A DNA stretch of 64,000 nt from Pseudomonadota bacterium (GCA_021808925.1 JAKBAR010000002.1:5922-69921), one strand, 5' to 3'; shown: positions 4,741-52,657, counted from the stretch's first letter. Numbers and translations: made by a program. The notes: generated by a model not told the origin, from the letters alone.

Positions 4741-5429
4741 ATGAAAAAGATTTTAACACTAATGTCATTAATATCTATGGGGGGGGGGTAGCATTTGACC
4801 TTTCTCCTGTGAGGGCGAGTGAGGAGGAGACTCATGAACTGAATCAGGCCATGAATCAGATCAATAGTGAAAGAAGGGATATTGAAAAAATTCAAAAGCT
4901 TAAGAGTGAGTTTGATGAGAAAATCAAAAAACTCGAGGAGAACATAAAAAAGCTTGAAAAAGAAAACGACATTTGGGGAGAGAAGCACAGCGGGCTTTTG
5001 CAGGATATTTCCAAGCTTCACAAAAAACTCAAAGAAAAAGATGAGGAAATTGAACGCCTCACAAATAGCCCTAATAATATGCCCCCCGTGCTACAGCTCA
5101 TCATGCTTACTCGCGATTTAAAGAGTCTTGATCTTGATAAGAAGAATTTAACAAACAATGACAGAGATACACTTGATCGCGTCTTTGGTAGGGTTGCTCA
5201 TCAGTATCATTTTGAGATTTTTAAATCAATCTATGAGCTCCAAGACAAGCTCAAAGACACGATCTTGTTGGATGAAAAATCTCAGAAAATAGCGCAAAAA
5301 TGCTATGATAAGATCTTCCAGTCTTTAAAGAAAACTTATGATGATGAGTCAACGAGCGAGAATCTCCGCTCAGCAATAGAAAATCTTTTTGAAAAGTACG
5401 AATATTTTTCTGATGAAGATAAGGATTAG
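4741..5429 (+). pseudogene. coiled-coil protein gene interrupted at a G10 homopolymer (phase-variable or frameshifted)
   Basis: GGAG at 4730-4733 lies 7 nt upstream of the ATG at 4741. The reading MKKILTLMSLISMGGG then hits TAG at 4789. The 206-codon body (track ORF 4809-5429) is open in the frame reached by +1 G or -2 G, and it has no SD of its own. Confidence 0.55.
4779..4788. repeat. G10 homopolymeric tract
   Basis: Ten consecutive G read directly from the sequence (atatctatgg ggggggggta). Confidence 0.95.
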
Positions 5430-9717: not shown

Positions 9718-10794
9718 TTAATTCGTTGATAGTTTTTCAATTTCATTTTGAATAGTCACAAGATCAGTTAACACTTTGTTAACAGTTGCATTAAGATAAC
9801 CTTGAATCGCTTTAAAATCACCTTCTTGAAGAAGCGAGGAGCTTGTCTGAAGCGCCGCAAATGTTGCATAAATCGTATCTGGCACTTTTACTTCCCAGCT
9901 ACCATATTTTACACTTGCATTGCCCAGCCTAGAGGCATTGACCTGAGCTCCTTCCGAAGCATTGTCATTGGCTCGCTTAGAAAAAGGATCTTTAACTTTT
10001 TCATTGTTGATAAGGATAAGCATTGATCCATCAGGACGATTTTTCGTTCCTGGAAATGTAATATCTGTCGAATTATCATCAATTTCAACGGATTGGTTGA
10101 GATCATGACCGTTTTTATAGCTCCAAACTGTAGCTGTTATGGTGTTGTCATTATCATCCGTCGTCACAGATGTATAGTAGCTAAAATCAAGAGCTGTTCT
10201 TTTAAGTGATTTTAAAACAAGTTCACTTGGAAGGAAAAGATGTGGCCCTATGAAAAGAGGATTAATACCCTTTGAATTAAAAGGTTTTACGGAAAACTTC
10301 TTATCTTCCTCTGTGCTAAGCGTGAATCCATTCATATATTTCAAGGTCTCATTAACATGATTTTTAAGATCATCTCCTGTTTCGCTTGTGAGAGGAGTAA
10401 TGTAGTTTTTTTCAAAATCTAAAAGTGTTTGATGAAGCGTTCCAAAAATATCACAAGCCGCCCCCGAAGAAAGAATAGAATTTTTCTGCTTCAAAAGATT
10501 TTCATTTGTGATTTGCAATTCACTTAATTCTTTTTTCTTTTGGTCAATTTCTTTTTGACCTTCATCGTACTTATTACTTACATCCTCAAGACTTTTTGTT
10601 GAGTTATTCTTAAGAAAATTCCATTTATCTACTGTATCAATATTTTTTTCTATCTTAAAATTCTTTTTTTTAGATTTACTATTCTCTTCAATCTCAATAA
10701 ACTCTTCCTTTTTTTTCTCATTATTATTCTCAGAAGAATAAGAAAAACCCGTGGAAAGAGCGAGGATAAGCGCTGTGGATACTATTCTTTTCAT
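9718..10794 (-). CDS. secreted hypothetical protein (coiled-coil N-terminal half, Asn/Asp/Thr-rich C-terminal half)
   Basis: 358 aa with signal peptide MKRIVSTALILALSTGFSYS. I recognised no family motif. Confidence 0.6.
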   Translation of the reverse strand: MKRIVSTALILALSTGFSYSSENNNEKKKEEFIEIEENSKSKKKNFKIEKNIDTVDKWNFLKNNSTKSLEDVSNKYDEGQKEIDQKKKELSELQITNENLLKQKNSILSSGAACDIFGTLHQTLLDFEKNYITPLTSETGDDLKNHVNETLKYMNGFTLSTEEDKKFSVKPFNSKGINPLFIGPHLFLPSELVLKSLKRTALDFSYYTSVTTDDNDNTITATVWSYKNGHDLNQSVEIDDNSTDITFPGTKNRPDGSMLILINNEKVKDPFSKRANDNASEGAQVNASRLGNASVKYGSWEVKVPDTIYATFAALQTSSSLLQEGDFKAIQGYLNATVNKVLTDLVTIQNEIEKLSTN

Positions 10795-11026
10795 AAAAAA
10801 ACTCCCTTTTAAAAAACCAGAATTGGTTGACGGTTTTATTGTGGAAGAGAGATTCTTAACAAATGGTTAAGATTCATGGGTAAATTTGACAAGAGTTATC
10901 CACACGTGTACATTGGCGTCATCGCCGAGGGTGCTCTTTTGCCTATAAACTCAAGGGAGCTGAGAGAGCTTATTGCTCAACCTTTATTCACTTGATCTGG
11001 TTCATACCAGCGTAAGGAGTTGTGTT

Positions 11027-11860
11027 TTGACGAAAATGATAAAAAATTTATTTATTTTTCTGTGGTGCATCCACTTAAGCCATGCGTCTAATCCGGAGGA
11101 AAATTCTAAAAAACCACTCTCCCAAACAATTGTATACCGCGTCGTCGCAGAAAATACGCTCAAATTATTCAGCCAAACGATTACAACCTCGCAACAAATT
11201 CATCAAAATAATTTCCTTAAAACACTCAAAAATATTTATAATACAAGAGGCATCAAAGGTGTTTTAGGGCTGAATATACTTAAGGAAACAATTTCTATCA
11301 GCCTTTTGAAAAACACATATAAGTGGATTAGCTATCAAAATCTTCCGGGTATTCTCTCAACTTATTACCCAAAAGAGTGGGAAAGTTATAAAAACATAAC
11401 CAATCATCTCACGTCTGGGGCAACGTTTAGTTTTTGCGAAATCCTCACATCCCGCCTAGAGCGCATACGCACGCTAAAACTACTTGATAAGACCCCTCCT
11501 CCTTTGAAGTTCAAAAATTTTTTTGATGGGGGCAGCCTTATTTTTTGGCGATCGTTTATCGGATCAACCTCTTTTCTCATCACCAATGACTATCTGCAAA
11601 AAAATATGAAGCATTACCGAAAAGGGTCTCTCCGCCCAGAAGATTATTTCATCATAGGAACATTTTTGACATGCCAGCATGTGCTTTTAACACACCCCCT
11701 TACAAGTCTTTTGACGCATTTCTATAACGAGAAAGAAACGACTTCCCTCAAAAATATTTTAAAAAAACACACCTTAAAATCTCTTTATAAAGGGCTACCA
11801 ACACATTTTTGGGCAAGCTACCTTTTATTCACCCTAGACAGTTATTTAATGGATTTGTAA
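11027..11860 (+). CDS. hypothetical membrane protein, possibly a degenerate mitochondrial-carrier-family (tripartite repeat) protein
   Basis: AAGGAG at 11014-11019 lies 7 nt upstream of a TTG at 11027; an ATG alternative is at 11036. Three roughly 80-100 aa repeats each end in a carrier-like G-x-x-x-x-[aromatic/K]-G segment (RGIKGVLG, DGGSLIFWRSFIG, LKSLYKGLP). P-x-D-x-x-K-like segments are seen at TSRLERIRTLK and THPLTSLLTH. Confidence 0.4.
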   Translation: MTKMIKNLFIFLWCIHLSHASNPEENSKKPLSQTIVYRVVAENTLKLFSQTITTSQQIHQNNFLKTLKNIYNTRGIKGVLGLNILKETISISLLKNTYKWISYQNLPGILSTYYPKEWESYKNITNHLTSGATFSFCEILTSRLERIRTLKLLDKTPPPLKFKNFFDGGSLIFWRSFIGSTSFLITNDYLQKNMKHYRKGSLRPEDYFIIGTFLTCQHVLLTHPLTSLLTHFYNEKETTSLKNILKKHTLKSLYKGLPTHFWASYLLFTLDSYLMDL

Positions 11861-11941
11861 CGTCAAAAAAAATCAACGGCGCACACACGATGACTTTCCC
11901 CTTGAAAACTTTTACGAAAAAGCCTACATTTCCTCTATCGT

Positions 11942-12018
11942 CGGAACGTAGCGCAGCCTGGTAGCGCACTATTCTGGGGGGATAGGGGTCGTGGGTTCAA
12001 ATCCCGCCGTTCCGACCA
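11942..12018 (+). tRNA. tRNA-Pro (anticodon GGG)
   Basis: Hand-folded cloverleaf. Acceptor CGGAACG/CGTTCCG, D arm GCGC-AGCCTGGTA-GCGC, anticodon loop CTGGGGG, T arm GTGGG-TTCAAAT-CCCGC. The CCA end is encoded. Confidence 0.9.
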
Positions 12019-12745: not shown

Positions 12746-13198
12746 ATGGGAAGAATTCTTTGGAGTTTTATTTTTGCGACGTCACTACCCCTGATGTCGG
12801 CCCTTGTATCCGCAGAAATGCTTGATACTGTACAACAAAAAAATGCGCGCCCCCTTGCTGGATCCCCGGCTATGACTGAGGAAAACATGACAGAAGACTA
12901 TCTTTTTCCAGAAGAAAATGATGAGGAAATGCTCGAGCATGCAAATTTTACGCCTTCCAAGCATAAAAAAACACCTCAAAAATCTGATGATAAATTGCAC
13001 AAAAAGAAAAAGTCACAAAAAATTCATCAAGAGGGCGAAGACCTTCAGCGCATGGCCTTAAAAGAAAAGCCTGTAACCACACGGAAACCGAATGTCAAAG
13101 CCCTTGATATTCTTTATAATGAGCCTCAAGAGGGTCTCCAAATCGATGATATTCAAAAAATGCCTGAAGGTGAGGCACCAATCGATATCGTCGCCTAA
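12746..13198 (+). CDS. secreted disordered acidic/basic protein (hypothetical)
   Basis: Strong SD (aaaggagg) upstream of the ATG. Signal peptide MGRILWSFIFATSLPLMSALVSA. Low-complexity K/E/Q-rich body. Confidence 0.65.
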   Translation: MGRILWSFIFATSLPLMSALVSAEMLDTVQQKNARPLAGSPAMTEENMTEDYLFPEENDEEMLEHANFTPSKHKKTPQKSDDKLHKKKKSQKIHQEGEDLQRMALKEKPVTTRKPNVKALDILYNEPQEGLQIDDIQKMPEGEAPIDIVA

Positions 13199-13272: not shown

Positions 13273-13899
13273 TTAGCCGTCAACTTCAACAAAACAAAGG
13301 AACTTCCGACCTGAATTATCCATACCAAAATATTTGGAGGACGCAAACATAATTTCTTTTTTGCCATTAATCGGAGCACCACCAATAGGGCTTTTTATAG
13401 AGGTTGGCACAGAAATACGTGCCACATCTTTATTACCAGCGAGCGCTGCTACAGCCTGAGACAGAATACTTTTTCCACTCGCATCCACCCATCCCGCAGC
13501 ACTTTTCCCGACATCCTTACCAGTCCCCGTCGCCGCCCAATTGCCATTCATAATACACTTAACGCCAGAAACACCATTGGAGGACACCGTAACTTCCTTG
13601 GCGTTCTCCTCTTGATCAATCTGCCCCTGATTATTGGTCGGGGTTTGATTATTAAGAATTTCGAAAACACGTTCCAAACTTTTATTATCGATAAAAAATG
13701 TTTTTGTTTTTTTTAAACGATTTTCAGCCTCTATAATTTTTGCTGTCAATGACGGATCTGTCAGTTGATTTTCTGTATTTTGTGAGGCGTCTGGAATCGC
13801 TGGATTCACAGTTGACCGGCCTTTATTTTTCTCCGCCATCGCCAAAGAAAAAGAGCCCGCCAAAAGACAAAAAGATGTAACAATAAAAATGGGTTTCAT
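13273..13899 (-). CDS. secreted hypothetical protein
   Basis: 208 aa with signal peptide MKPIFIVTSFCLLAGSFSLAMA. Gly/Ala-rich C-terminal half. No family recognised. Confidence 0.6.
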   Translation of the reverse strand: MKPIFIVTSFCLLAGSFSLAMAEKNKGRSTVNPAIPDASQNTENQLTDPSLTAKIIEAENRLKKTKTFFIDNKSLERVFEILNNQTPTNNQGQIDQEENAKEVTVSSNGVSGVKCIMNGNWAATGTGKDVGKSAAGWVDASGKSILSQAVAALAGNKDVARISVPTSIKSPIGGAPINGKKEIMFASSKYFGMDNSGRKFLCFVEVDG

Positions 13900-14069: not shown

Positions 14070-14582
14070 ATGAACATTAAAAACATATTCTTAATTTTTC
14101 TTAGCACATCATTAGTGAGTCTCTGTACGATGAATGTCGCAATGGCAGGAAAAGACTCTCTTAATGAGCGAAAAAAACGCCTAGCCACAAAAATCAACAG
14201 TCAAAAAACCGCTTTTGAGGCTGAAATAAAACCTTTTAAAATATGCACCGATGAAAAAAATGATAAAAATGAGGAAAACATAATTCTCATGCACGCTATA
14301 AAGGTCTTATGCAACAATAAAAACGATAAAATTGCTCCGTTCATAAGCAATATGAAAAAGTTTTTGGACAAAAAGTTCCCCAAGTACACGATCATTAGCG
14401 ATTCTTTAACGTTGACCCTCGACGCGAATTTGTCCTGCGAGGAAAATTATGAAACCATCAAAAAGACACTAATAGACACTAGTTTTGAGCGCCATAAGGG
14501 AAAAATTTCAAAAGAAAGCATCAAAACACAGCTTGAAATTATCGAGAGAGCAGGCTTCAAAAAGATAGAAGTAATAATATAG
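14070..14582 (+). CDS. secreted hypothetical protein
   Basis: 170 aa with signal peptide ...LSTSLVSLCTMNVAMA. A very AT-rich divergent leader lies at 13900-14069. Confidence 0.55.
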   Translation: MNIKNIFLIFLSTSLVSLCTMNVAMAGKDSLNERKKRLATKINSQKTAFEAEIKPFKICTDEKNDKNEENIILMHAIKVLCNNKNDKIAPFISNMKKFLDKKFPKYTIISDSLTLTLDANLSCEENYETIKKTLIDTSFERHKGKISKESIKTQLEIIERAGFKKIEVII

Positions 14583-27132: not shown

Positions 27133-28023
27133 ATGACATCAGATTCGCTCAACATTACAACACAACTTGCACAAGAACTTATCCAAGAACAATTTCCAAA
27201 GTTTGCACGCCTCACTCTTCAGCCTGTCGCACGTCAAGGACATGACAATCGCACATTTCGCCTGGGCGAAGAGATGTCTATCCGCCTCCCCACAGCAGAA
27301 TCTTACGCCCTTAAAGTCCCAAAAGAACAAGAGCTGTTACCCTTCCTCGCCCCGCATTTATCCCTTTCGATCCCAAGCCCTCTTTTTATGGGAAAACCCT
27401 CTAAATATTATCCATGGCCCTGGTCCATTTATCAGTGGCTCCCCGGAAAAAGTGCCAATGAATTTACCGCGGTAGAGGATAATTTGTTAGAATCAATCGC
27501 CTATGACCTTGCACAATTCCTAAGAGAACTCCATCGCATTGATCCATCCCATGGGCCAACACCGGGCCTTCATAATTGGTGGCGCGGCGATCATATCCGT
27601 GTTTATGATGCCGAGGCACGCACATATATCGCTGCACTTTCTAAGGTTATCAACAGCGATCAAGCGCTTGATTTATGGGAAAACGCCATGGCAACACAGT
27701 GGAAAAAAGAACCTGTTTGGATTCATGGCGATATGGCTTATGGAAATATTCTTCTTCAGGAAGGAAAACTGACTGGTGTGATTGATTTTGGGGGGATGGG
27801 GATTGGCGATCCGGCGTGTGATCTTGTGATGGCATGGACTTTTTTCAAAGGAAAATCGCGTGAAATCTTTAAACAGTCCCTCAGTTTGGATAACAATACA
27901 TGGCTCAGAGCTAAGGCCTGGGCCCTTTGGAAAGCGGCATTTGAGTTGTGCCAGCTCGACGATACGGAAACTCAAAAGGCTTTTTTACACAAAAAAATTA
28001 TTAGCGATGTATTAACCGCATAG
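27133..28023 (+). CDS. aminoglycoside phosphotransferase (APH) family kinase
   Basis: 296 aa. Brenner/catalytic region VWIHGDMAYGNILL...GVIDFGGMGIGDPACDL. Confidence 0.75.
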   Translation: MTSDSLNITTQLAQELIQEQFPKFARLTLQPVARQGHDNRTFRLGEEMSIRLPTAESYALKVPKEQELLPFLAPHLSLSIPSPLFMGKPSKYYPWPWSIYQWLPGKSANEFTAVEDNLLESIAYDLAQFLRELHRIDPSHGPTPGLHNWWRGDHIRVYDAEARTYIAALSKVINSDQALDLWENAMATQWKKEPVWIHGDMAYGNILLQEGKLTGVIDFGGMGIGDPACDLVMAWTFFKGKSREIFKQSLSLDNNTWLRAKAWALWKAAFELCQLDDTETQKAFLHKKIISDVLTA

Positions 28024-31905: not shown

Positions 31906-32799
31906 TCAAAAACCCTCCAGCGTATTTAAAATAGCTGTGGTTTTTTCAAAATACGTCGTAGGCAGCTGGTCTTCCTCGGCCCAAACCCAAGCAAGCACCG
32001 CTTGCACAAAACACCAATCAAGGATTCGTTGATAAGGCAATTCAAGGAGCTCAGCAAAGCGCGTGACGCGACCCTGAATACTATTTGGCGCATCTACGTG
32101 ATGCAGTAATTCTGGTATGGGATTGCGGATAAAAGCGGCAACCTCAAAGGCCCTCTCACCGATTACCCCTTTTGGATCGATCACCACCCAATCATTCCCC
32201 TGCCACAGAATATTATCATGATGCAAATCGCCATGCAGGAGGGTATCTGCACCACGTGTTTGCAATAAAAAATCGCGCATTTTTTTTGCTTTTTGAAGGG
32301 AACTCTCTGGGATACATGTTGCTGTGTCCAAGGCCTTCAGCCAATCTCTGATATGGGGGAAAGGATGATTTTGAGGAATCGCAGACCTATGCAAACGCTG
32401 CATAAGAGAACAGGCAATCTGGATGCTTTCCTCATCTTTGTGCGGAAAAAAAGACTTAAGCGACGTTCCAGGCACAGCACGCTCGAGCAAGAGCATGCCC
32501 GGCTCCTCGGCAATAGCAGTCACAGTTCCACGATCTTTAAAACACCGAAGAGCCATGGCTTCTCTTGCAAGACCCGCCGTATCCATACTTCGTTTTAAAA
32601 TGACAGGCACCCCTTTTTGAAAACCTGAGGCTACATAATTGTAGGTTAGAGAAGGGAACGGTGTAAGCTCTGTCAGATTGTATTTTAGAGCCATGTCACG
32701 CAGAAAACCCGGGAGCTCCTCTAACCACTTCGCGCCCTCTTTGCCATATATTTTTTCTATCGTCGTCTCAAAAGAAACGACGGATGTGCTTTTAGTCAT
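31906..32799 (-). CDS. APH(6)/streptomycin-kinase-like phosphotransferase (aminoglycoside/hydroxyurea resistance kinase family)
   Basis: 297 aa. Catalytic region LLHGDLHHDNILWQGNDWVVIDPKG. Its start overlaps the EamA stop by 4 nt. Confidence 0.65.
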   Translation of the reverse strand: MTKSTSVVSFETTIEKIYGKEGAKWLEELPGFLRDMALKYNLTELTPFPSLTYNYVASGFQKGVPVILKRSMDTAGLAREAMALRCFKDRGTVTAIAEEPGMLLLERAVPGTSLKSFFPHKDEESIQIACSLMQRLHRSAIPQNHPFPHIRDWLKALDTATCIPESSLQKAKKMRDFLLQTRGADTLLHGDLHHDNILWQGNDWVVIDPKGVIGERAFEVAAFIRNPIPELLHHVDAPNSIQGRVTRFAELLELPYQRILDWCFVQAVLAWVWAEEDQLPTTYFEKTTAILNTLEGF

Positions 32800-33680
32800 G
32801 GGTGTTTCACAGGAGATTCTTTTTTAGCCTTATGCCACTGATTAATAATGAGGCCCGCAAAAACAAGGAGGCACCCTGAAAATGTTGTGAGCGTATACGC
32901 CTCGCGAAAAACCATCCACGAAAGCGTCATACCAAAAACAGGAATCAGCAACGCATACGGTACGACAATCGCTGCATCATAAAGTTTAAAAAGATACGCC
33001 CAAAGCGTTGACCCAATCCATGTTCCGGCGACGACGATAAAAGCCAACGAGAGCACACCCTTCATCGAAATATGGCGCAAACTTTCGATTATAAGCTCTG
33101 GTCCCTCAAAAATAAAACTTAGGCCTAAAAGGGGCAAAGGCGGGACAAGCCCCATCCAAATCACAAGCCCAAAAGCATCCACATTTTTTGCCTTTCGAAA
33201 AAACATATTCGCAAAAGCCCAAAAGAGGGCTGCTATCATAATACAGGCAAACCCTATGATATTCGCCTGTCCCCCTGTTTGCTGCGCGATTAGCCCAATC
33301 CCCATAAAAGCAATGACCATGCCAAGGGCTTGCCGCGGGGAAACCTGACTTTTAAAGAAGATTTTCGACAGAATAATGGTAAAGAGCACTTGTGTTTGCA
33401 GCACAAGAGAGGCCAGCCCTGGGGAAAATTCAAAATAGAGACTCAGAAAAACAAAGGAAAACTTACACACCCCAAGAAGAAGCGCGATAGTCGACATAAG
33501 GGACCACGAAAGATTCTTAGGCTTTGGAATGAAAAAAATCAAAGGAAATGTTGAAAATATAAATCGCAAACACAAAAGTAAAAAAGGCGGCAGGTCATTC
33601 ATACACCACTTCGCCACCACAAAATTACTCCCCCACACAAAAGCGATCGTGAGGGCCAAAAAAACATGTCTAATATGCAT
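32796..33680 (-). CDS. EamA/DMT-family transporter
   Basis: 294 aa with 10 predicted hydrophobic helices in two EamA-like halves. Confidence 0.75.
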   Translation of the reverse strand: MHIRHVFLALTIAFVWGSNFVVAKWCMNDLPPFLLLCLRFIFSTFPLIFFIPKPKNLSWSLMSTIALLLGVCKFSFVFLSLYFEFSPGLASLVLQTQVLFTIILSKIFFKSQVSPRQALGMVIAFMGIGLIAQQTGGQANIIGFACIMIAALFWAFANMFFRKAKNVDAFGLVIWMGLVPPLPLLGLSFIFEGPELIIESLRHISMKGVLSLAFIVVAGTWIGSTLWAYLFKLYDAAIVVPYALLIPVFGMTLSWMVFREAYTLTTFSGCLLVFAGLIINQWHKAKKESPVKHP

Positions 33681-38793: not shown

Positions 38794-39510
38794 TTAGAAA
38801 AACACATCCCCTGTTGCAAAGGTTTTTATCTCTCCCGTTTCTGTTTTTAAAAGAAGACATCCCTCTTTATCAATATTATGAAAGGATCCTTTGATAACAC
38901 GATCCCCTTGTTGAATCGTCATCATCGCGTGACGCTTGTCCCGCAAAGATATCCACTGATCACACAAATCCGGCCAGTGGCCTTGCGCTAAGTCGTTCAA
39001 ATATGCCAAGAGATAAGTTTTAAGGCCCTCTAAAAGATCACAAAGAGCAATAGAATACCCTGATGCTTTGAGGGATGTGGCAGGATACAACACCTCGACA
39101 AGCTCTGGCGCGTGCTCTCTATTCACGCCTATGCCTATGGATAACACAGAAAAATCCTGAGATTCTTCGAGGATTTCGATGAGAATCCCTGCTATTTTTT
39201 TTCCGCCCAGCAACACATCATTGGGCCATTTTAGGGATAAATCTTTTACCCCTTGAGTATCGAGTGCTTTATAAAGTGCAAGGGCTGCAACAAAAGAAAT
39301 AAATGTTTTATGTTGTAACGCACAAGGCAAGACAAACGTCGCAAAAAGATTTCCCTTGGCTGAAACCCATGAGCGCCCCCGCCGCCCCCTCCCCTTTTCT
39401 TGGGACTGCGCCGTGACATAAAAAGGAATGGGTGTTTTTTTCTGATAAAGATCACGTGCAACATCCATCGTACTGGACACATGATCAAACGCATGCAAAG
39501 AAAGTGTCAT
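38794..39510 (-). CDS. birA: biotin--[acetyl-CoA-carboxylase] ligase (class I, no HTH)
   Basis: GRGRRGRSW motif, KWPNDVLLGGKKIAGIL. 4-nt overlap with nuoN. Confidence 0.85.
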   Translation of the reverse strand: MTLSLHAFDHVSSTMDVARDLYQKKTPIPFYVTAQSQEKGRGRRGRSWVSAKGNLFATFVLPCALQHKTFISFVAALALYKALDTQGVKDLSLKWPNDVLLGGKKIAGILIEILEESQDFSVLSIGIGVNREHAPELVEVLYPATSLKASGYSIALCDLLEGLKTYLLAYLNDLAQGHWPDLCDQWISLRDKRHAMMTIQQGDRVIKGSFHNIDKEGCLLLKTETGEIKTFATGDVFF

Positions 39511-40964
39511 GTGTAAAAAAGCGTCGACGCCGCAATATTCGTCCAGTTCAAAAGGTATTTAGGCAGGAAAATAAGCCCTGTGAGAAGCGAAATAGACAGA
39601 ATAACGATAAGGTAGTTAAGACCAAGTTTGCCAGAAACATGCGTTAAGATTGATGGCTCAACAGGCCCATCAAAAAACATTATTTTGAGGATATTAAGAT
39701 AATAATAGGTTGTTATAACCGTTGTCAGAACCATCACAATAGCCACATTGTAAAATTCCGAACCAACGGCCGCCTGTAGTAACAGAAGTTTTCCCAAAAA
39801 CCCTGGAAAAGGAGGTAATCCCGACATTGTCAGCACAAGAATGGCAATAGCAATTGCGACAAAAGGCCTTTGTGTCGCAAGACCTTTAAGATCAGAAAGT
39901 TTATCGATAGTACTGCCCCGACGAAGCAAAATCATGACGCATGTCAAAAACCCAATCATCGAAAAGATATAGAGTGTTGTGTAAAAAAGACTTCCTCTTA
40001 AGCCTGATTCATTCGCAAAAGCAAGGCCCACAAGAGAAAAACCAATGCTACTAATGGATGCATACGCCAGAAACCGCCTCACATTGCCTTGCATGACAGA
40101 GGCCACAGCCCCAAAAACCATCGAGGCCACGGCAAGGATCATCAAAAGGGGCTGCCACGTAGAAATTTCCGTATAAAAGGGCCCCAGAAAAAGCCTCATC
40201 ATAAAACCAAGCGCTGCGATTTTAGGGGCTGTCGACACGAGAACAAGAAGCGGATAGGGTGTGCCTTGATAAACATCTGGCGTCCACATATGAAAAGGAA
40301 AAGAGGAGACTTTAAAAGCGAGACCGCACAGTAAAAAGGCAATACCAAGGTAAAGACTCAGAGGGGACTGAGCGCCATTATTGAGCAAAGATTCAAGCAC
40401 ATTAAAATTTGTCGTTCCAGAAAATCCGTAAATAAAACTTATTCCAAAAAGAATAAAACAACTCGCCACAGCTCCAAGGATAAAATATTTTAAAACCGCT
40501 TCCGGTACATTTTTTTCCTCATGAAAAAGCCCAATCATCACATAGAGGGCAAGACTTTGAATTTCAAGACCGATGTAAGCCGGGAGGAAATCATTCGCAG
40601 AAACAAGGATAAACATGCCTAAAACAGCACAAAGAAGCAGCACGACAAACTCAAAATGTTTCACTTTAAAAAAAGTCAAATGGGATTGAAGATTCAGCGC
40701 TAAAAGAGCTGCACAAAGTGCGATAATACTCTTGATAAAAAGACTAAAGCTGTCATTAAAAAAATGGCCATCAAAGGTCACATCACGCAACCCTGGCAAG
40801 AAAAAACAGCCAAAAGCGATGGCGAGTAACATCAACGAGGTTAAGCTAAAAAGCCATGCTTTACGTTGACCTTTGCTAAAAAGGCCTGCAACCGTTGCGC
40901 CTAGAGCGGCAAAAACGAGACAGACTTCAGGAGACGCTGGAAGAAAATAGCTGAGAACTGTCAT
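39507..40964 (-). CDS. nuoN: NADH-quinone oxidoreductase subunit N
   Basis: 485 aa antiporter-like subunit, last in the nuo gene order. Overlaps nuoM by 4 nt. Confidence 0.88.
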   Translation of the reverse strand: MTVLSYFLPASPEVCLVFAALGATVAGLFSKGQRKAWLFSLTSLMLLAIAFGCFFLPGLRDVTFDGHFFNDSFSLFIKSIIALCAALLALNLQSHLTFFKVKHFEFVVLLLCAVLGMFILVSANDFLPAYIGLEIQSLALYVMIGLFHEEKNVPEAVLKYFILGAVASCFILFGISFIYGFSGTTNFNVLESLLNNGAQSPLSLYLGIAFLLCGLAFKVSSFPFHMWTPDVYQGTPYPLLVLVSTAPKIAALGFMMRLFLGPFYTEISTWQPLLMILAVASMVFGAVASVMQGNVRRFLAYASISSIGFSLVGLAFANESGLRGSLFYTTLYIFSMIGFLTCVMILLRRGSTIDKLSDLKGLATQRPFVAIAIAILVLTMSGLPPFPGFLGKLLLLQAAVGSEFYNVAIVMVLTTVITTYYYLNILKIMFFDGPVEPSILTHVSGKLGLNYLIVILSISLLTGLIFLPKYLLNWTNIAASTLFYT

Positions 40965-42538
40965 CGTGCTGGATTCCCCGTCATTTTATCTTTTTTTCCC
41001 TTTGTATTGGTTAACTTTGGCGGTTTTTCTTGTTGCATAAAAAGATCGAGCAATGTCTCATCAGAACTAAATCTTTTGCCATAAGCATCAAGCATGTGAT
41101 GGGCATATACATTCAAAATCGATGTGACAGGCTTAGGATAAAGCCCTAAGATAAACACAGGCACGATAAGTGCTGTAAGCACAAAAAACTCAGAAAAACG
41201 AAGGTCAGCTATGTGCTTAATGTCTAAAAAATGAGCATTCAACTTATCATACACAATACGACGGTAAAGCCATAAACCGTAGGCAGCACTTAGTATAATG
41301 CCTAAAACAACAAAGGCTGTGAGTGTAGGAGACACTTGAAAAATGCCAAGGGTTACAAAAAACTCACCAAGAAATCCGCTTGTCCCCGGAAGCCCAATCG
41401 ACGCCAGTGTAAAAAGCATAAAAAACGTTGCATACCGCGGCATTTTTGCAGCAAGCCCCCCATAATAGGCAATCTCTCGTGTGTGAAAACGCTCGTAAAC
41501 GACACCCACACAAAAAAACAATGCAGCCGAAATAAGACCATGACTCAACATTTGAATAATACTTCCCACAAGACCGTAGTGGTTAAAAGAAAAAATACCA
41601 AGTGTCACAAACCCCATATGTGCGATGGAGGAATAGGCCACAAGCTTTTTCATGTCTTTTTGGGCAAGAGCCACAAGGGACGCATAAAGAATCGCAACAA
41701 CCGATAAAAAATAGACAAGGGGTGCAAAATAGACAGAGGCTTCGGGAAACAAAGGCAGTGAAAGCCTGAGCATACCATAGCCACCAAGTTTCAATAAAAT
41801 ACCCGCAAGCAGCATAGACCCTGCTGTAGGTGCCTCCACGTGCGCATCCGGCAACCATGTATGCACAGGCCACATCGGAATTTTAACGGCAAATGCGACA
41901 AAAAGGGCCCCCCATAGCCAGCCTTGGAGATAAAAAGGAAAATGCGCATGGTGCATTTCCACCATATTCGTCGTACCTACTTCGTAATACACAACGACAA
42001 ACGCCACGAGCATCAACACAGACCCAACGAGGGTATAAAGGAAAAATTTAAACGTCGCATAAATACGCTTTTCGCCCCCCCAAATCCCTATAATCAAAAA
42101 CATTGGAATGAGGACAGCCTCGAAGAAAAAATAAAACAACACAAGATCAAGGGCGCTAAAAACACCGATTAAGAAAGATTCTAAGAGCAAGAAACAGATA
42201 TAATATTCGCGCACACGCTTGAGGTGATAGTTATGCACCAGTGCGATGAGCGTAAGGAATGATGTGAGTACGATGAGAAAAAGCGATAGACCGTCAACGC
42301 CCAAATGATATGAACTATTAAAAGCGGAAATCCACGCATATTTTTCAACGAACTGCATCGTTGTCACAAGAGGCTCAAAGTGATGCCACGCATAAACACT
42401 TAAAAAAAAGTGAATCCCTGCAACAAAAAGAGCAACACGCGGTGTATTTTGAAGGCTTTGATTATCGCGAATAAAAAAAATTGTCACGGCCCCAAGAAGA
42501 GGCAGAAGGATCAAAAGGCTTAAAAGCGGCCATTGCAT
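40961..42538 (-). CDS. nuoM: NADH-quinone oxidoreductase subunit M
   Basis: Antiporter-like subunit. The start is set at ATG 42538 (MQWPLLSLL...), giving a TAATG junction with the nuoL stop. It has a polar C-terminal tail of about 30 aa. Confidence 0.88.
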   Translation of the reverse strand: MQWPLLSLLILLPLLGAVTIFFIRDNQSLQNTPRVALFVAGIHFFLSVYAWHHFEPLVTTMQFVEKYAWISAFNSSYHLGVDGLSLFLIVLTSFLTLIALVHNYHLKRVREYYICFLLLESFLIGVFSALDLVLFYFFFEAVLIPMFLIIGIWGGEKRIYATFKFFLYTLVGSVLMLVAFVVVYYEVGTTNMVEMHHAHFPFYLQGWLWGALFVAFAVKIPMWPVHTWLPDAHVEAPTAGSMLLAGILLKLGGYGMLRLSLPLFPEASVYFAPLVYFLSVVAILYASLVALAQKDMKKLVAYSSIAHMGFVTLGIFSFNHYGLVGSIIQMLSHGLISAALFFCVGVVYERFHTREIAYYGGLAAKMPRYATFFMLFTLASIGLPGTSGFLGEFFVTLGIFQVSPTLTAFVVLGIILSAAYGLWLYRRIVYDKLNAHFLDIKHIADLRFSEFFVLTALIVPVFILGLYPKPVTSILNVYAHHMLDAYGKRFSSDETLLDLFMQQEKPPKLTNTKGKKDKMTGNPAR

Positions 42539-44415
42539 TAATAAAAACCTCCTTGAACCCATAGATAAAGAAGCACACTCATCAGACCTACCATCATCGC
42601 AAACGCATAGTGATAAAGATAGCCCGTTTGAAGCTGCTTAAAAGCTGTTGATATTCGCGTCACAAGGGACGCAAGACCATTAGGGCCAAGGCGATCAATC
42701 GTCAAAAGGTCCCCTCTTTGCCATAAAATCGTCCCAAGTTCCAAAGAACCCTGTACAAAAATTTTAGAATATATTTTATCAAAAAACCACTTATTCAACG
42801 CAAAAAGGTAGAGGTATTTTAAATGGCGCGTGAGATTAAATGCTACATGAGGTTTTGTGAAAAAGAAGAAATAAGCGGCACCGACGCCCAAAAGAGCCGC
42901 AATAATGGGAGCTTGTAAAACCCAACTTGGCACACTTGCATGGTGATGAATAAAAAAATCCTCTGTCATAAATCCAAGAAAAGTAGCCCCTAGCGCAAGA
43001 CAAATAAGTGGTACCCGCATGACCCAGGGCGCTTCGTGAATATGGGCCATTACATGCTCATCTGCACGGGGACTGCCATGAAAAACTTTGATTAAAAGAC
43101 GCCAGCTATAAAGTGCTGTTAGAAACGCCACAAAAAGACCAATCCCAAAAAGCATCTTTGCCTGTGCCGTTCCCCCTGCATAGGTTGCCACAAGGATGCT
43201 ATCTTTTGAATAAAACCCTGAGAAAAAGGGAATCCCCGCAAGCGCAAGGTTACCAATCCACATCATGGCGTAGGTAAAGGGGATGCGCCGATAAAGCCCC
43301 CCCATTTTTTCCATATTCTGCTCATCCGACAAGGCATGAATCACAGCCCCTGCCCCCAAAAAGAGAAGCGCCTTAAAAAAAGCATGGGTAATCAGGTGAA
43401 AAAAAGCCGCATCAACGCCGCCCATTCCCGCTGCCATAACCATATAGCCCAGCTGGCTACACGTTGAATAAGCGATCACGCGCTTAATATCCTCTTGCAC
43501 AAGTGCTACTGTCGCTGCAAAGAAACACGTAACACCCCCAACCCAGGCAATAAAATGCTGAACCGATACCGCCATTTCAAAAAGAGGATGCAGGCGAATA
43601 AGCAAATACACTCCTGCTGTGACCATGGTTGCAGCGTGAATGAGTGCAGATACGGGCGTTGGGCCTTCCATAGCATCGGGCAACCACACATGCAATCCTA
43701 TCTGCGCTGATTTTCCCATCACTCCGAGGAAAAGAGCCATACATATTAAACTCACCGCATCAACCGAATAGCCAAAAAATAAAAATGTTTTTCCACTCAA
43801 GAGCCCTAATGTCGATGGTTCTAAAATCCGCTGTAGATCAAGCGTTTGTGTCATAAAAAACAAAGCAGCAAGCCCCACAACAAGGCCCGCATCTCCCACA
43901 CGGTTCACCACAAATGCTTTAATCGCAGCACTGTTCGCAGACGGTTTATGAAACCAAAAGCCAATCAACAAATAAGAAGCAAGACCAACACCCTCCCATC
44001 CTAAAAAAAGCTGGACAAGATTCGGTGCCATAATCAGGGAAAGCATAAAAAACGTAAAAAGACTTAAATACGCCATGAACCGCGGAATCGATGCATCGTG
44101 GGACATATACCCAACGGAATAAATGTGAATAAGCGCTGACACAACATTCACCATCACCATCATGGTAAGGCTCGTGCGATCCATCATCATCCCAAAGGTC
44201 ATATTCAGAGAATCAACGTCGATCCATTGCCAAAAAGTAAGGGTTGTTGTTTTAAAAGCGATAAACAGAAAAATAGAAGCGACGGCTGCAATCCCCATAA
44301 AACTACAGGAGAGCCATTGCACCAAGCGATCACTTACACGTTTATTCAAAAGGATTGCAATGAAAAAGCCCACAAGTGGCGAAAAAAAGGCATAGTAGGG
44401 TAAGTAGTGCGCCAT
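42538..44415 (-). CDS. nuoL: NADH-quinone oxidoreductase subunit L
   Basis: 625 aa antiporter-like subunit with a long C-terminal amphipathic extension. Confidence 0.9.
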   Translation of the reverse strand: MAHYLPYYAFFSPLVGFFIAILLNKRVSDRLVQWLSCSFMGIAAVASIFLFIAFKTTTLTFWQWIDVDSLNMTFGMMMDRTSLTMMVMVNVVSALIHIYSVGYMSHDASIPRFMAYLSLFTFFMLSLIMAPNLVQLFLGWEGVGLASYLLIGFWFHKPSANSAAIKAFVVNRVGDAGLVVGLAALFFMTQTLDLQRILEPSTLGLLSGKTFLFFGYSVDAVSLICMALFLGVMGKSAQIGLHVWLPDAMEGPTPVSALIHAATMVTAGVYLLIRLHPLFEMAVSVQHFIAWVGGVTCFFAATVALVQEDIKRVIAYSTCSQLGYMVMAAGMGGVDAAFFHLITHAFFKALLFLGAGAVIHALSDEQNMEKMGGLYRRIPFTYAMMWIGNLALAGIPFFSGFYSKDSILVATYAGGTAQAKMLFGIGLFVAFLTALYSWRLLIKVFHGSPRADEHVMAHIHEAPWVMRVPLICLALGATFLGFMTEDFFIHHHASVPSWVLQAPIIAALLGVGAAYFFFFTKPHVAFNLTRHLKYLYLFALNKWFFDKIYSKIFVQGSLELGTILWQRGDLLTIDRLGPNGLASLVTRISTAFKQLQTGYLYHYAFAMMVGLMSVLLYLWVQGGFY

Positions 44416-44422
44416 TAGTTCT

Positions 44423-44740
44423 TCATCCCTTCATCTGACTTAGATCATCCACACGGATAGAGCGATGCTGGCGATAATAGACAACCAGAATAGCAAGGCC
44501 AATCGCCGCCTCTGCAGCCGCCACCGTGAGAATAAATAATGAAAAGACCTGGCCGACCATATCATGGAAGTCACTTGAAAACGCCACAAAATTAATATTC
44601 GTTGCAAGCAACATCAGCTCAATCGACATCAACATGAGAATAAGATTGCGACGATTGAGAATAATGCCCAAAAGCCCTATGGAAAAAACAATGACACCAA
44701 GGATCAAATAGTGCTGTAAGGGAATAACCATATCAATCAT
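44423..44740 (-). CDS. nuoK: NADH-quinone oxidoreductase subunit K
   Basis: 105 aa with three TM helices and [13 protein letters not shown]. Confidence 0.9.
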
Positions 44741-45351
44741 GAGGATAATCCTTTGCCGGGTTTGACGTTCACCATTTTCAGTGTCTGCGCAGGATCGCGT
44801 TCCAACTGACGACGAATGTCCTGACGCTTGAGTGTTTTTTTCGTCTTAAGTGTCAGAGCAATCGCACCCACCATCGCGACAAAAAGAATGATGCCTGCAA
44901 GCTGAAACGCTAAGAAATAATTGGTATAGAGAATATGCCCCAAAGCCGCCGTATTTGTTGTTTTTTGAGAGATCCCATGACTAATGACATCCACAGCTTT
45001 AGTATTGCTTTGCCACACCCACACCATGGCCACAAGTTCTGTCAGGAAAAAAAGCCCACATCCCGCCGCAAGGAGACCAAAATGCTGCACCCGCTCCTTA
45101 ATTTTATCAAACGCCACATCAAACATCATCACCACGAATAGAAATAAAATCGCCACAGCGCCCACATAAACAATTGCTAGAATAAGCGCTAAAAACTCTG
45201 CTCCTGCCAGCAAAAAAAGAATAGAGGTGTCAAGAAATGCAGCAATAAGAAAAAGAACGGAATAAATAGGATTGCGCGCCAAAATAACACACCCACTGGC
45301 CATCACAAGCTTAAAAGCAAACATATAAAAAATTAAAAGCTCCGGCGTCAT
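44737..45351 (-). CDS. nuoJ: NADH-quinone oxidoreductase subunit J
   Basis: 204 aa with [12 protein letters not shown]...[16 protein letters not shown]. Confidence 0.88.
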
Positions 45352-45354
45352 GGT

Positions 45355-45843
45355 CTACCTATACTCCTCATCCGCCTTAATATTCTCTGCAATCGCTGTC
45401 TCCCATATTTTTCCATTATGAATGAGTTTGTCCTTGGAATACAAAAGTTCTTCATGCGTAAATGTTGCATATTCAAAATTCGGCCCCTCCACAATGGCAT
45501 CCACAGGACATGCTTCTTGGCAAAGTCCACAATAAATACACTTTGTCATATCAATATCATAGCGCACCGTGCGACGACTTCCCTCTGTAATCCCCTCACC
45601 TCCACGGGGTTCAGCCTCAATGACAATGGCTTGAGCAGGGCAAATCGCCTCGCATAATTTACACGCAATACAGCGCTCCTCGCCATTTGCATAGTGACGC
45701 AACGCATGTTGCCCCCTAAAGCGAGGACTCAAAGGCGCTTTTTCATTCGGATAGAGTAATGTGACTTTGCGTTTAAAAAGATACCGCAGTGTTGTCCAAA
45801 ATCCTTTGAGAATATCCAGGAGGAGAAAATCTTTTAGCCTCAT
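45355..45843 (-). CDS. nuoI: NADH-quinone oxidoreductase subunit I
   Basis: Two 4Fe-4S ferredoxin motifs, [12 protein letters not shown] and [12 protein letters not shown]. Confidence 0.92.
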
Positions 45844-46868
45844 TCGACAATCCCCCTCAAATCAAAGATAAAGACGACCGCTGCTGTAAGCACGAGCCAC
45901 ACAAGAGAAAAAGGCAAAAAGACTTTCCACCCAAGGCGCATCAGCTGATCAAAACGAAACCGTGGCAACGTGGCGCGCGCCCATAGAAAAATAAAAAGAA
46001 GCCCACAAATTTTAAAAATAAACCAAAACGTCTCAGGGATAAAGGCAAGCAGTGTACTATTAAAAGGAGGCAGCCATCCCCCCAAAAATAAAATTGTGCA
46101 AAGTGCACTCATCAAAATCATATTGGCATACTCGCCCAAGAAAAAAAGTGCAAAGGACAGCGAAGAATACTCCACATGAAAACCCGCAACGAGCTCTGAC
46201 TCAGCTTCTGGAAGGTCAAAAGGTGTGCGGTTTGTCTCTGCCAATGCTGAGATAAAGAAAATGACAAACATTGGGAAAAGAGGAATGCAATACCACATAT
46301 CCTTTTGCGCAAGGACGATATCTTTTAAGTTGAGCGACCCTGAGAGCAGGATGACAGTCACAAGCACAAACCCGATCGACACCTCATAAGACACCATTTG
46401 CGCCGCCGACCGAAGGGCTCCAAGGAGTGCGTATTTTGAATTACTGGCCCATCCCGCAATAATAATGCCATACACACCCAGCGACGAAATGGCAAAAAGA
46501 TACAAAAGCCCCACATTAATATCTGCAACCACAAACGTACTGTTAAAGGGAATCACAGCCCACGCCGCAAGGCTGAGTCCAAACGTGATGACAGGTGCCA
46601 GCAAAAAAAGAAATTTGCTCGACACAGTAGGGATAATAACCTCCTTGTGCAGGAGTTTTACAGCATCTGCAATGGGTTGCAAAAGGCCAAAAGGACCGCA
46701 CAACTGTGGCCCAACGCGCAGCTGCATAAACGCCATGATTTTACGCTCTGCATAGGTTAAATACGCAACACCTAAAAGCAGCGGCACCACAATCAACATA
46801 ATTTTCAATACGATCTCAATCACATAAAAACCATAGGTGTTAAAAAGAGAGAGCATGCTGTCAGCCAT
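45840..46868 (-). CDS. nuoH: NADH-quinone oxidoreductase subunit H
   Basis: 342 aa with [15 protein letters not shown] and [20 protein letters not shown]. Confidence 0.92.
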
Positions 46869-48951
46869 GGGTCACCTTCTTTTGATCATCATTGTTGCCC
46901 CCTTTTTGTTTAAGCTGAAGAGAGCATGACGCCATAATTTTAGAATTTTTAGCAATGACATTGTCCATATAAAAATCGCTCACAGGCATTGCAAAAGGTC
47001 GATTGCTCAATTTTGCCTTTGCCAAACGCTCATCCACGATGGGCTGATAATGCGGGCACATCATCCCATCGGTTGCGAAAAGGGGATAGTCTTTTTGAAG
47101 GTGTTGATGTAATTCCGCACGATGATTAAAGGGAAGGGCCTGACCACACATCTGTGACAGTACCCGTAAAATACGCCAATCTTCCTTTGCTTCTCCAGGT
47201 GCTTGAACAGCCTGACATGTTTGTTGAATACGCCCCTCGAGGTTGACATAAAGTGCATTTTTTTCCGTATACGCACACCCCGGCAGAATCACATCCGCCG
47301 CATTGGCCCCCTCATCCCCATGATGGCCCTGGTAAATCATAAAAGTATTTTGAAGACGACTAAAGTTAAGACAATCCGCCCCTAAGATATACGCTACCTT
47401 CAAATGATGCGCTTCAGAAGCTTCATACATCCCCTCCAAACTCAATCCCTTTTCACCCGGTAGAAAACCTACATCAAAGGCCCCCACCCTTGCCGCAGAA
47501 AGAGATAAAACATTATAGCCGTTCCAGTCATCCCGAATGATTTTGTGTGTCAGGCAAAAAGATTTAACAAGGTGTTCGATTTTATCCGCATCCGCATGCG
47601 TGAAAACAGCTTCGCCCAAAAGAATCATCGGTTTTTTCGCTGTAATTAATTTTTGTGTAAAGGGATGCTGAGCCTCACGCAAAAATTCAAGGGCAGTAGG
47701 TTTGTCGCCCAAATGCTCATATGTATACGTGAGATCCACAGCCTCTCCCACAAGTCCCACAGAAAAGTCGCCACTCCATGAGCGTTTTTTAAGACGCGCA
47801 TTGACAAGAGACGCCTCAAGCCTTGGGTTAGCACCAATTATAAGACAGACATCCGCCTGCTCGGTCCCTGCAATCGTTGTGTTAAAAAGATAGTCAGAAC
47901 GACTCTGAGGAGTAAGTTTTGATCCATTCGCACGCGACTCTAAGTTTTCAGAACCTAGCCCCTGCATAAATTTTTTAAGCGCATACATCGCCTCAACATC
48001 ACACAAATCCCCTGTAATCGCGGCGATCTCAGACGCCTTTGCCCCCTTGAACGCACCCACAACCGCGTTCAGAGCCTCATCCCACGATGCAGGCTGAAGT
48101 TTTCCTTTTTTATTGCGAATATAGGGCCTATCCAGGCGCTGATACTTAAGACCATCATAGGCAAAGCGTGTTTTATCAGAAATCCAGTCCTCATTAATGG
48201 CCTCAAACGCCCTTGGCAACACGCGCATTACCTCAAAAGGCCCCCTTGTATCAATGCGAATATGCGATCCCACCGCATCCATCACATCAATGCTTGGCGT
48301 TTTCGTAAGCTCCCAAGGCCGCCCGTGAAAGGCATACGGCTTATTTGTCAGCGCCCCCACAGGACAAATATCGATCAAATTACCCGACAGTTCTGAGGTT
48401 ATCGCCGTGTCCAAAAATGTTGTAATCTCCATGTGCTCGCCCCTGTGGAGCGTTCCAAGCTCAGAGGTTCCTGCGATTTCATGAGCAAACCGCACACACC
48501 GCGTACAATGAATACACCGTGTCATCTGTGTTTTAATGAGTGGCCCCATGTTTTTATCAGAAACAGCTCGCTTGTTCAGGTCATAGCGACTTTTGCCGCG
48601 ACCATAGCTCATCGTAATATCTTGAAGATCGCACTCTCCCCCCTGGTCACAAATAGGACAATCCAGAGGATGATTAATGAGGAGTAACTCCAGAACACCC
48701 TGACGTGCTTTTTGAACAACGTCCGTATTGGTGTGGATCACCATCCCCTCTGCCACGGGCATAGCGCAACTTGCAACAGGTTTCGGTGATTTTTCCATTT
48801 CCACGAGGCACATACGACAGTTGCCCGCAATGGAAAGTTTTGGGTGATAGCAAAAAAAAGGAACCTCAGCACCCGCTTCCTCGCATGCCTGAAGCACCGT
48901 GTACCCTTCGGGCACATCAATGGGCGAATGATTAATCGTTAGTTTGACCAT
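46861..48951 (-). CDS. nuoG: NADH-quinone oxidoreductase subunit G
   Basis: 696 aa with an N-terminal 2Fe-2S region ([18 protein letters not shown]), a [10 protein letters not shown] cluster and a molybdopterin-like domain. Confidence 0.92.
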
Positions 48952-48954
48952 AAT

Positions 48955-50223
48955 TTACACAGCCTCCCGCACACGCAAGCGCTCTTCCATCTCGTGGCGA
49001 AAATGACGGACAAGGCCCTGAATCGGCCATGCTGCCGCATCACCTAATGCACAAATTGTGTGTCCTTCCACCTGTTTTGTGACCTCCAATAAATCATCAA
49101 TATCTTTTGAGGTGCCACGCCCTTTAGAAATATTCACCATCATGCGCCACATCCACCCCGTTCCCTCCCGGCAAGGTGTGCACTGACCACAACTCTCATG
49201 CATATAAAACTTAGACAAACGCGCAATTGCCTTGATAATGTCTGTACTTTCATCCATCACAATCACACCGCCCGTACCAAGGCCAGAGCCCACAGCACGC
49301 AGGCTATCAAAATCCATCGTCACAGTTTCAGCAATATCTTTTGTAATAAGAGGCACCGACGATCCCCCGGGAATCACAGCCTTAAGATTATCCCATCCCC
49401 CACGCACACCCCCTGCATGTTTATCCATAAGTTCCTTGAGAGGAATCCCCATAGCTTCCTCCACATTACAAGGACGATTCACATGGCCCGAGAGACAATA
49501 AATTTTAGTCCCCGTATTATTTGGTTTTCCAATGCTTGCAAACCACTCGGCCCCACGTCGCAAAATTGTGGGCACAACGGCGATACTTTCCACATTATTC
49601 ACCGTCGTCGGGCATCCATAAAGGCCAATATTGGCAGGAAAAGGAGGCTTGAGGCGCGGCATTCCCTTGCGACCTTCGAGGCTTTCTAAAAGCGCAGACT
49701 CCTCTCCACAAATATAAGCCCCCGCCCCGCGGTGAAGAAAAAGATCAAAATCCCACCCCGCTTTGCACGCATTTTTTCCAAGAAATCCTTTGCTATACGC
49801 CTCATCAATCGCTTTTTGAAGAATCACAGCCTCATGATAAAATTCACCGCGAATATAGATATACCCCACATGCGCACCGATAGCCGTCCCCGCGATCAGC
49901 GCACCCTCAACAAGTTTGTGAGGCTCGTAGCGCAAAATATCACGGTCCTTGCACGTCCCTGGTTCACTTTCATCGGCATTAATCACAAGATAACTTGGCT
50001 TTGGGTGACTTTTAGGCATAAAGGACCATTTCATACCCGTACTAAAACCGGCCCCGCCCCTTCCTCGAAGGCCTGAAGCTTTTACGTGTTCAATGATTGT
50101 CTCGCGCCCCAAGGCTAAGATTTTTTTTGTCTCATCCCAATCTCCGCGCGCCATAGCCGCTGTCAGAAAAGGAGAGTCCTCTCCGCTCAGATTTGTAAAA
50201 ATACGATCTTTGGCATTAAGCAT
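48955..50223 (-). CDS. nuoF: NADH-quinone oxidoreductase subunit F
   Basis: 422 aa with [13 protein letters not shown] (FMN), [19 protein letters not shown] and [12 protein letters not shown]. Confidence 0.93.
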
Positions 50224-52655: not shown

Positions 52656-52657
52656 TG

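Follow-up and report, generated by a model that had tools for sequence, protein, structure and literature searches.

What is a gene for a mitochondrial carrier-like protein doing behind a thiamine pyrophosphate (TPP) riboswitch on a bacterial chromosome? To our knowledge, eukaryotes are credited with the invention of mitochondrial carriers, and the few bacterial copies that have been studied are weapons sent into host mitochondria. The gene in question occupies positions 11027-11860 (+) of a 64,000-nucleotide stretch of DNA from a Pseudomonadota bacterium (GCA_021808925.1, JAKBAR010000002.1:5922-69921), the whole of which is referred to below as the window. A first-pass annotation, made from the sequence alone, had suggested a highly diverged mitochondrial carrier family (MCF, SLC25) protein, serving either as an effector or, more loosely, as a membrane protein. 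The family assignment is supported by sequence, profile and predicted-fold evidence. With regard to function, we consider it moderately probable that the product is a TPP-riboswitch-controlled importer of thiamine cofactors in the bacterial inner membrane, with TPP of the host cytosol as its most likely substrate.

Homology and fold of the carrier-like protein

The open frame around the gene spans 10973-11860 (+). Translation from its in-frame TTG at 11027 yields 277 aa, and an in-frame ATG at 11036 offers an alternative start (274 aa). Upstream of the TTG, and 7 nt away from it, lies AAGGAG (11014-11019). The same 277-aa product is called in public assemblies (P0001), where the locus lies on four contigs, and the open reading frame (ORF) is intact and identical across several independent assemblies. 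The gene as first drawn was thus confirmed. It is divided as follows:

11027-11860 (+): carrier-like ORF, 277 aa, TTG start, stop codon 11858-11860, MCF homology
11108-11365 (+): carrier repeat 1, residues 28-113, with helix H1, matrix helix h12 and helix H2; degenerate signature F48-S-Q50-T-I-T53-T-S-Q-Q57
11366-11626 (+): carrier repeat 2, residues 114-200, with H3, a shortened matrix loop and H4; signature R143-L-E145-R-I-R148; G168 invariant in the family
11627-11857 (+): carrier repeat 3, residues 201-277, with H5, h56 and H6; P224-L-T-S-L-L; Y254-K-G256 intact; the only repeat detected by Pfam

Mito_carr was the sole Pfam match at E <= 10. The profile matched at a permissive threshold (E 4.5e-4; 20.3 bits against a cut-off of 22.3) and aligned only to repeat 3, at residues 204-256 of the 274-aa form; repeats scanned singly against it gave E 0.14 or nothing. 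An NCBIfam scan of the protein returned no match, and a search of PDB with the single window sequence gave chance matches only. When the window protein, the family alignment or the relative P0006 was used as the query, word-indexed homologue searches returned almost only the queries, and two metagenome scans with poor peptide patterns found nothing. Among the homologue searches tried, the family was found by an exhaustive HMMER search alone. Of 1.84 billion representatives, 13 proteins reached E <= 0.001. One of them, P0003 (1858 aa, 20 stretches, second-best match), proved spurious, its tandem repeat resembling the short N-terminal linker; among the remaining 12, one is the query, leaving 11 full-length relatives (P0004-P0014) with E 4e-9 to 4e-4 and 21-31% identity.

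These relatives connect the window protein to the carriers. Mito_carr matched all ten of the 11 that were scanned (E 6e-26 to 1e-7, 31-90 bits), and a family hidden Markov model (HMM) built without the window protein assigned it 158 bits over residues 6-276. On sequence grounds, homology to Mito_carr is therefore established transitively, via the relatives and the leave-out family HMM. When the family profile was compared with all PDB sequences, only mitochondrial carriers were found, led by GGC1 (2.6e-16) and followed by the oxoglutarate carrier (OGC), UCP1/2, the ADP/ATP carrier (AAC) and MTCH2 chimeras. That yeast GGC1 ranks first says little about a relationship to TPP carriers.

The fold predictions agree with this assignment. 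An AlphaFold2 (AF2) model made with an 18-sequence alignment (predicted local distance difference test, pLDDT, 87.2; predicted template-modelling score, pTM, 0.81) comprises six long helices and short matrix-side helices (h12, h56). In a Foldseek comparison of this model with PDB, the ten best matches were all carriers (UCP1, the oxoglutarate carrier and ADP/ATP carriers; probability 1.00, TM 0.53-0.67), after which the list fell sharply to noise. The first-pass annotation would have fallen with no permissive Mito_carr match and no six-helix carrier bundle in the predicted fold; both are present. The single-sequence AF2 model was uninformative (pLDDT 37). Three-fold repetition was also detected, with hhalign comparison of repeat sub-alignments from the family alignment relating R1 to R3 (E 1.4e-12), R2 to R3 (E 3e-7) and R1 to R2 (E 6e-5). 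The earlier division into three segments is therefore upheld, at about 85 aa each, the repeats being short (77-87 aa).

The motifs of the family are strongly eroded. The matrix signature PX[DE]XX[KR]X[KR] is degenerate on all odd-numbered helices (H1, F48-S-Q-T-I-T-T-S; H3, R143-L-E-R-I-R-T-L; H5, P224-L-T-S-L-L-T-H): motif charges are kept only at E145/R148 and Pro only on H5 (P224), so that from the sequence a complete inter-helix matrix salt bridge appears impossible in this protein. The cytoplasmic signature [FY][DE]XX[KR] is likewise degenerate (H2, Y98-K-W-I-S; H4, N187-D-Y-L-Q(K); H6, L270-D-S-Y-L); Asp is left on H4 and H6, their basic partners are gone, and H2 has no acidic residue. 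The first-pass annotation had correctly noted that most salt-bridge charges are replaced, and all peptides it quoted occur in the translation. Its register for repeat 2 was wrong: G168, which never varies within the family, corresponds to the last G of [WYF][KR]G and not to the G of [DE]G, and the [DE]G/matrix-helix part of this repeat is largely deleted. Erosion differs among relatives. P0004 and P0006, for example, keep two of the three matrix charge pairs, and P0006 keeps all three prolines.

Riboswitch, signal peptide and topology

Upstream of the gene, and within its 5′ end, the following elements were predicted:

10886-10914 (+): candidate sigma-70-like promoter, TTGACA-17 nt-TACATT, 10 of 12 consensus matches, called by consensus only; ends 2 nt before the riboswitch
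10917-11035 (+): TPP (THI-box) riboswitch aptamer, RF00059, in the 5′ leader of the carrier gene; 57.5 bits against a gathering score of 54.3; E 1.2e-8 with the whole window searched; alignment covers the full model (1-105)
11014-11019 (+): Shine-Dalgarno AAGGAG, in the 3′ strand of aptamer P4 and adjoining the P1 3′ strand, 7 nt before the TTG
11027-11086 (+): N-terminal Sec-type signal peptide or signal anchor, MTKMIKNLFIFLWCIHLSHA-SN, with two Lys, an 11-residue hydrophobic core and S-H-A at -3 to -1

The riboswitch match lies on the strand of the carrier ORF and ends one base 5′ of the ATG at 11036. Both core elements, CUGAGA and ACUUGAUCUGGUUCAUACCAGCG, are present. In the cmscan alignment, GCGUAAGGAG is set against the consensus GCGUAGGGA, and AAGGAG falls at the consensus "AGGGA" of the 3′ P4 strand; this hexamer is predicted to be base-paired in both the minimum free energy and the centroid folds. 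No intrinsic terminator was found after the aptamer, and control is therefore presumably translational: with the Shine-Dalgarno sequence embedded in the aptamer, TPP binding would repress translation directly. Ligand binding and expression switching are themselves predictions from the sequence.

A second RF00059 match (67.3 bits) was found directly upstream of P0006 on contig L090. The arrangement is alike, with GCGGAGGAAG followed by ATG, an embedded ribosome-binding site and a TTGACA...TACAT-type element 5′ of the riboswitch. P0006 and the window protein share only about 19-23% identity, and different genes flank them. A stringent TPP core pattern occurred in 5 of 98 loci, namely the four copies of the window locus and L090, always before the carrier gene. 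No riboswitch was present upstream of P0004, P0005, P0007, P0008, P0009, P0011, P0014, P0015 or P0017.

The N-terminus, MTKMIKNLFIFLWCIHLSHA-SN, is organized like a Sec signal into n-, h- and c-regions (Kyte-Doolittle 0.87) and forms a separate low-confidence helix at residues 2-20 in the AF2 model; the mature protein has only about 257 aa. Most of its subfamily shares this feature: equivalent N-termini were seen in P0004-P0007, P0012 and P0014, and the branch containing P0010, P0013 and P0015-P0018 is without one. An N-terminal signal peptide would impose an N-out orientation, that of carriers in mitochondria. Lys and Arg number 17 on the matrix-side loops versus 7 on the opposite side, a bias that fits the positive-inside rule for N-out topology with the matrix-side loops in the bacterial cytoplasm. 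The riboswitch would sense the bacterium's own TPP, and together with the Sec-type signal this favors the bacterium's own inner membrane over host mitochondria as the presumable site of the protein.

A proposed thiamine-cofactor importer and its rivals

Rodionov et al. in 2002 and later surveys are said to have found that bacterial TPP riboswitches govern thiamine biosynthesis and transport genes almost exclusively. A transporter-fold protein behind such a riboswitch is therefore most simply a thiamine-family importer. TPP is favored as substrate because carriers commonly move phosphorylated cofactors and because a cytosolic symbiont shares the TPP pool that mitochondria use. We infer in this way the membrane location, the transport direction, the substrate and the transport activity alike.

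The mechanism we envisage is as follows. Transcription from the sigma-70-like promoter would produce a leader RNA folding into the TPP aptamer. With TPP plentiful, the bound aptamer would keep AAGGAG in P4 beside P1, and translation from the TTG at 11027 would be blocked; with TPP scarce, AAGGAG would be freed and the carrier-like protein made. The Sec-type signal peptide would direct membrane insertion so that the mature protein begins in the periplasm, after which the six helices would adopt the mitochondrial orientation, with matrix-side loops in the cytoplasm and the 'cytosolic' mouth open to the periplasm, and the substrate would pass by alternating access of the three-fold pseudo-symmetric bundle. 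With its salt-bridge gates largely lost, the protein may be a uniporter or an otherwise coupled importer and not a strict exchanger.

Several points weigh against the importer. The window protein has kept hardly any charged residue of either gate network and just one of the three helix-kink prolines, and other degenerate carriers, MTCH2 and SLC25A46 among them, do not transport in the classical sense. The informative AF2 model relies on an alignment of carrier homologues, and the signal peptide was called by eye and not by a predictor. Thiamine auxotrophy of the bacterium is assumed; no thiamine metabolism genes occur among the approximately 50 annotated ORFs of the window, a count that speaks for the window only. 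In addition, the riboswitch precedes 2 of the 11 family members with upstream DNA scanned (a count that leaves out P0010, and P0012 has only about 110 nt upstream), so that thiamine specificity may hold for a subset of the family only.

Substrate choice is where the strongest competitor lies. A TPP-regulated transporter could instead carry thiamine, thiamine monophosphate (ThMP), or a hydroxymethylpyrimidine (HMP) or thiazole precursor, or could work as an exchanger, with a product of thiamine breakdown going out. Among the known thiamine-related transporters under riboswitch control (ThiT, PnuT, CytX, ThiXYZ, YkoEDC), TPP is less often the substrate than thiamine or its precursors, and cavity residues differ between the two riboswitch-linked proteins (e.g., R175 of the window protein is N in P0006), showing no conservation within this pair. 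Thiamine, ThMP or a precursor is a possible substrate. On the other hand, mitochondrial carriers typically move phosphorylated cofactors, eukaryotes have a dedicated SLC25 TPP carrier, and a symbiont dwelling in the cytosol has direct access to host TPP. We consider a substrate other than TPP unlikely.

The eroded motifs raise a different doubt, namely that the carrier fold has been kept without transport, either as a decaying relic or repurposed as an MTCH2-like insertase/scramblase or for another thiamine-regulated role in the membrane. With both salt-bridge networks almost gone, the H1 and H3 prolines lost, matrix loop 2 shortened, the Pfam score under its gathering cut-off and MTCH2 chimeras among the PDB profile matches, this explanation has points in its favor. 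Against it stand an ORF that is intact and identical in several independent assemblies, an intact riboswitch, ribosome-binding site and start codon, and a fold predicted at high confidence. P0006, with its three prolines and two of three charge pairs, implies that the riboswitch-linked ancestor was probably a working carrier and that its function was probably transport. The loss of most of both gate networks makes the mode of transport uncertain; it suggests a non-canonical mode or, less probably, that transport has been lost. We place a non-transporting protein next in order and likewise regard it as unlikely.

The effector proposed by the first-pass annotation, a LncP-like protein exported by a type IV or other system into the host mitochondrial inner membrane to alter metabolite fluxes there, fared worse. 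Experiments on bacterial MCF proteins have dealt only with LncP and Lpg1137 of Legionella, both of them effectors of the Dot/Icm system (PMC3252375, PMC5621508). Some relatives lack a signal peptide (P0010, P0013, P0015, P0017) and occur in Legionellales-like contexts with CBU_0592 and patatin genes; the helices of the window protein are only moderately hydrophobic, and a weakly SidA-like ORF lies nearby. Yet sensing the bacterium's own TPP makes little sense for a host-directed protein, a Sec-type signal would route it to the bacterial inner membrane, which LncP reportedly avoids, and the window genes that were annotated included none of a secretion system. The riboswitch and the signal peptide thus speak against delivery to host mitochondria, which we judge very unlikely. 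The looser alternative of the same annotation, a membrane protein, agrees with a transporter of the bacterium's own inner membrane.

As to the origin of the gene, its GC content is 36% (43% for the window), and the GC content at third codon positions (GC3) is 39%, within the range of neighboring genes; composition therefore gives no clear signal of recent horizontal transfer. A tRNA-Pro(GGG) gene with its own promoter-like element (11902-11930) lies at 11942-12018 (+), 82 nt 3′ of the carrier stop codon. Acquired DNA often inserts at tRNA genes, yet the GC3 of the carrier gene is not anomalous. Elsewhere in the family, two independent metagenome contigs (L095/L096) have a split DDE transposase (DDE_Tnp_1) about 600 bp upstream of the P0014 gene, which hints at gene mobility. 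A eukaryotic origin of the carrier gene is plausible. The converse, that the signal-peptide-bearing, riboswitch-wired family of Paracaedibacteraceae-like Alphaproteobacteria is a surviving prokaryotic lineage near the long-sought bacterial ancestor of SLC25 and not a recent transfer, is compatible with the native-like GC3, the fully bacterial expression and targeting signals, and motifs far from any eukaryotic subfamily, but the family is very rare and patchy and its sources, where judgeable, are low-GC and host-associated, which favors transfer from hosts and makes an ancestral lineage very unlikely.

Genomic setting and comparison with known systems

The window is an ordinary alphaproteobacterial chromosome segment (dnaE, prfA, murF, lptC/lptA, hflX, def, the nuo operon and atpB). 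MurF is 48% and 46% identical to its counterparts in two uncultured Alphaproteobacteria metagenome-assembled genomes (MAGs), 42% to Candidatus Paracaedibacter symbiosus and 39% to Candidatus Odyssella. P0007, annotated as "hypothetical protein", comes from a Candidatus Paracaedibacteraceae MAG. The source therefore fits a host-associated alphaproteobacterium related to Paracaedibacteraceae and to symbionts of amoebae, judging by these sequences. None of 80 regions syntenic around MurF contained a carrier gene. Homologue loci are all bacterial-looking, with low GC contents (18-40%).

Other genes of the window were also surveyed. A 510-aa protein (56794-58326, -) combines an S-adenosylmethionine (SAM) methyltransferase domain with C-terminal ankyrin repeats, a eukaryote-like architecture typical of intracellular bacteria. 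Around the carrier gene lie four orphan ORFs, each with a clear signal peptide of the Sec type, at 9718-10794 (-), 12746-13198 (+), 13273-13899 (-) and 14070-14582 (+). None has an NCBIfam match or an entry in the precomputed Pfam records, and a Pfam scan of 9718-10794 was likewise empty. The GC content around them is about 0.36, that of the window 0.43. They may be proteins that a symbiont secretes or uses in its interaction with the host. The ankyrin-repeat protein and the orphan secreted proteins near the carrier gene fit a host-associated lifestyle. The SidA-like ORF mentioned above (206 aa, 4809-5429, +) is weakly similar, below threshold, to this family of type IV secretion system (T4SS) effectors (E 1.9e-5; 23.7 bits, where the cut-off is 60), and the precomputed Pfam records list a weak Vps53_N match for it.

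Two APH-family small-molecule kinases, at 27133-28023 (+) and 31906-32799 (-), had no specific NCBIfam equivalog match; the second adjoins an EamA-type transporter (32796-33680). We considered the first as a thiamine kinase, which is unsupported, its resemblance being only a weak one to aminoglycoside kinases. The nuo (complex I) cluster (39507-53170, -; nuoD, F, G, L, M and N) coincides with a strongly positive plus-strand AT skew (up to 0.30).

Some homologues come from quite different settings. P0009 is encoded on L093, a 1054 bp contig with 17.9% GC, which suggests that the family is also present in an extremely reduced, AT-rich symbiont genome. P0015 and P0017 (L005, L006) have no signal peptide and lie on bacterial contigs of 64-128 kb with CBU_0592-like, patatin and leucine-rich repeat (LRR) genes; they look like a separate, Legionellales-style and possibly effector branch of the family.

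A literature search found no report of an MCF-type protein tied to a riboswitch or to bacterial thiamine uptake. Fold and regulatory element are each known; their combination and its cellular setting are new. If the importer interpretation is correct, a bacterium has adopted the carrier fold for its own membrane, thiamine transporters gain a new protein family, and an intracellular bacterium meets its need for host TPP as mitochondria do. A small, naturally bacterial carrier could also be a model for expression and mechanism, including function without salt-bridge gates, and the family bears on the question of SLC25 origin.

Compared with the SLC25 (PF00153) carriers, the window protein has the same three homologous repeats, six-helix bundle and remnants of PX[DE]XX[KR] and [WYF][KR]G, as well as the same predicted orientation relative to the cytoplasm or matrix-equivalent compartment. 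It differs in being encoded on a bacterial chromosome with a promoter-like element, riboswitch and Shine-Dalgarno sequence, in its Sec-type N-terminal signal peptide, which mitochondrial carriers do not have, in the near absence of the matrix and cytoplasmic salt-bridge networks and in a repeat 2 matrix helix that is mostly gone. The proposed job would be analogous to that of yeast Tpc1p and human SLC25A19, i.e., import of TPP from the host cytosol into a bacterium-derived compartment. According to a 2026 preprint, SLC25 is without known prokaryotic homologues (10.64898/2026.03.31.715626).

Bacterial MCF homologues have been described in "a handful" of Chlamydiales, Rickettsiales and Legionellales, and are regarded as host-acquired effectors (PMC5621508). 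Legionella LncP is translocated by the T4SS to host mitochondria, moves nucleotides and must avoid SecYEG/YidC (PMC3252375). LncP and Lpg1137 resemble the window protein as MCF-fold proteins of host-associated bacteria, presumably acquired from eukaryotes. LncP differs in its canonical carrier motifs and in lacking a signal peptide. The window protein combines such a peptide with a TPP riboswitch and belongs to a separate subfamily that is mostly annotated as 'hypothetical protein'.

Known thiamine transporters (ThiT of the energy-coupling factor, ECF, type, PnuT, ThiBPQ, ThiV, YkoEDC, CytX and ThiXYZ) share with this locus a THI-box directly 5′ of a membrane transporter gene and translational control via a ribosome-binding site in or next to the aptamer. 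Their folds are wholly different, and the window protein had no Pfam or NCBIfam match to these families. In concept, there is a parallel with the Tlc/NTT translocases for ATP/ADP and NAD+ of Rickettsia and Chlamydia, by which a finished host metabolite is likewise imported through the bacterium's own inner membrane; NTTs, however, have 12 transmembrane helices in a fold of the major facilitator superfamily (MFS) type that is unrelated to the six-helix MCF fold.

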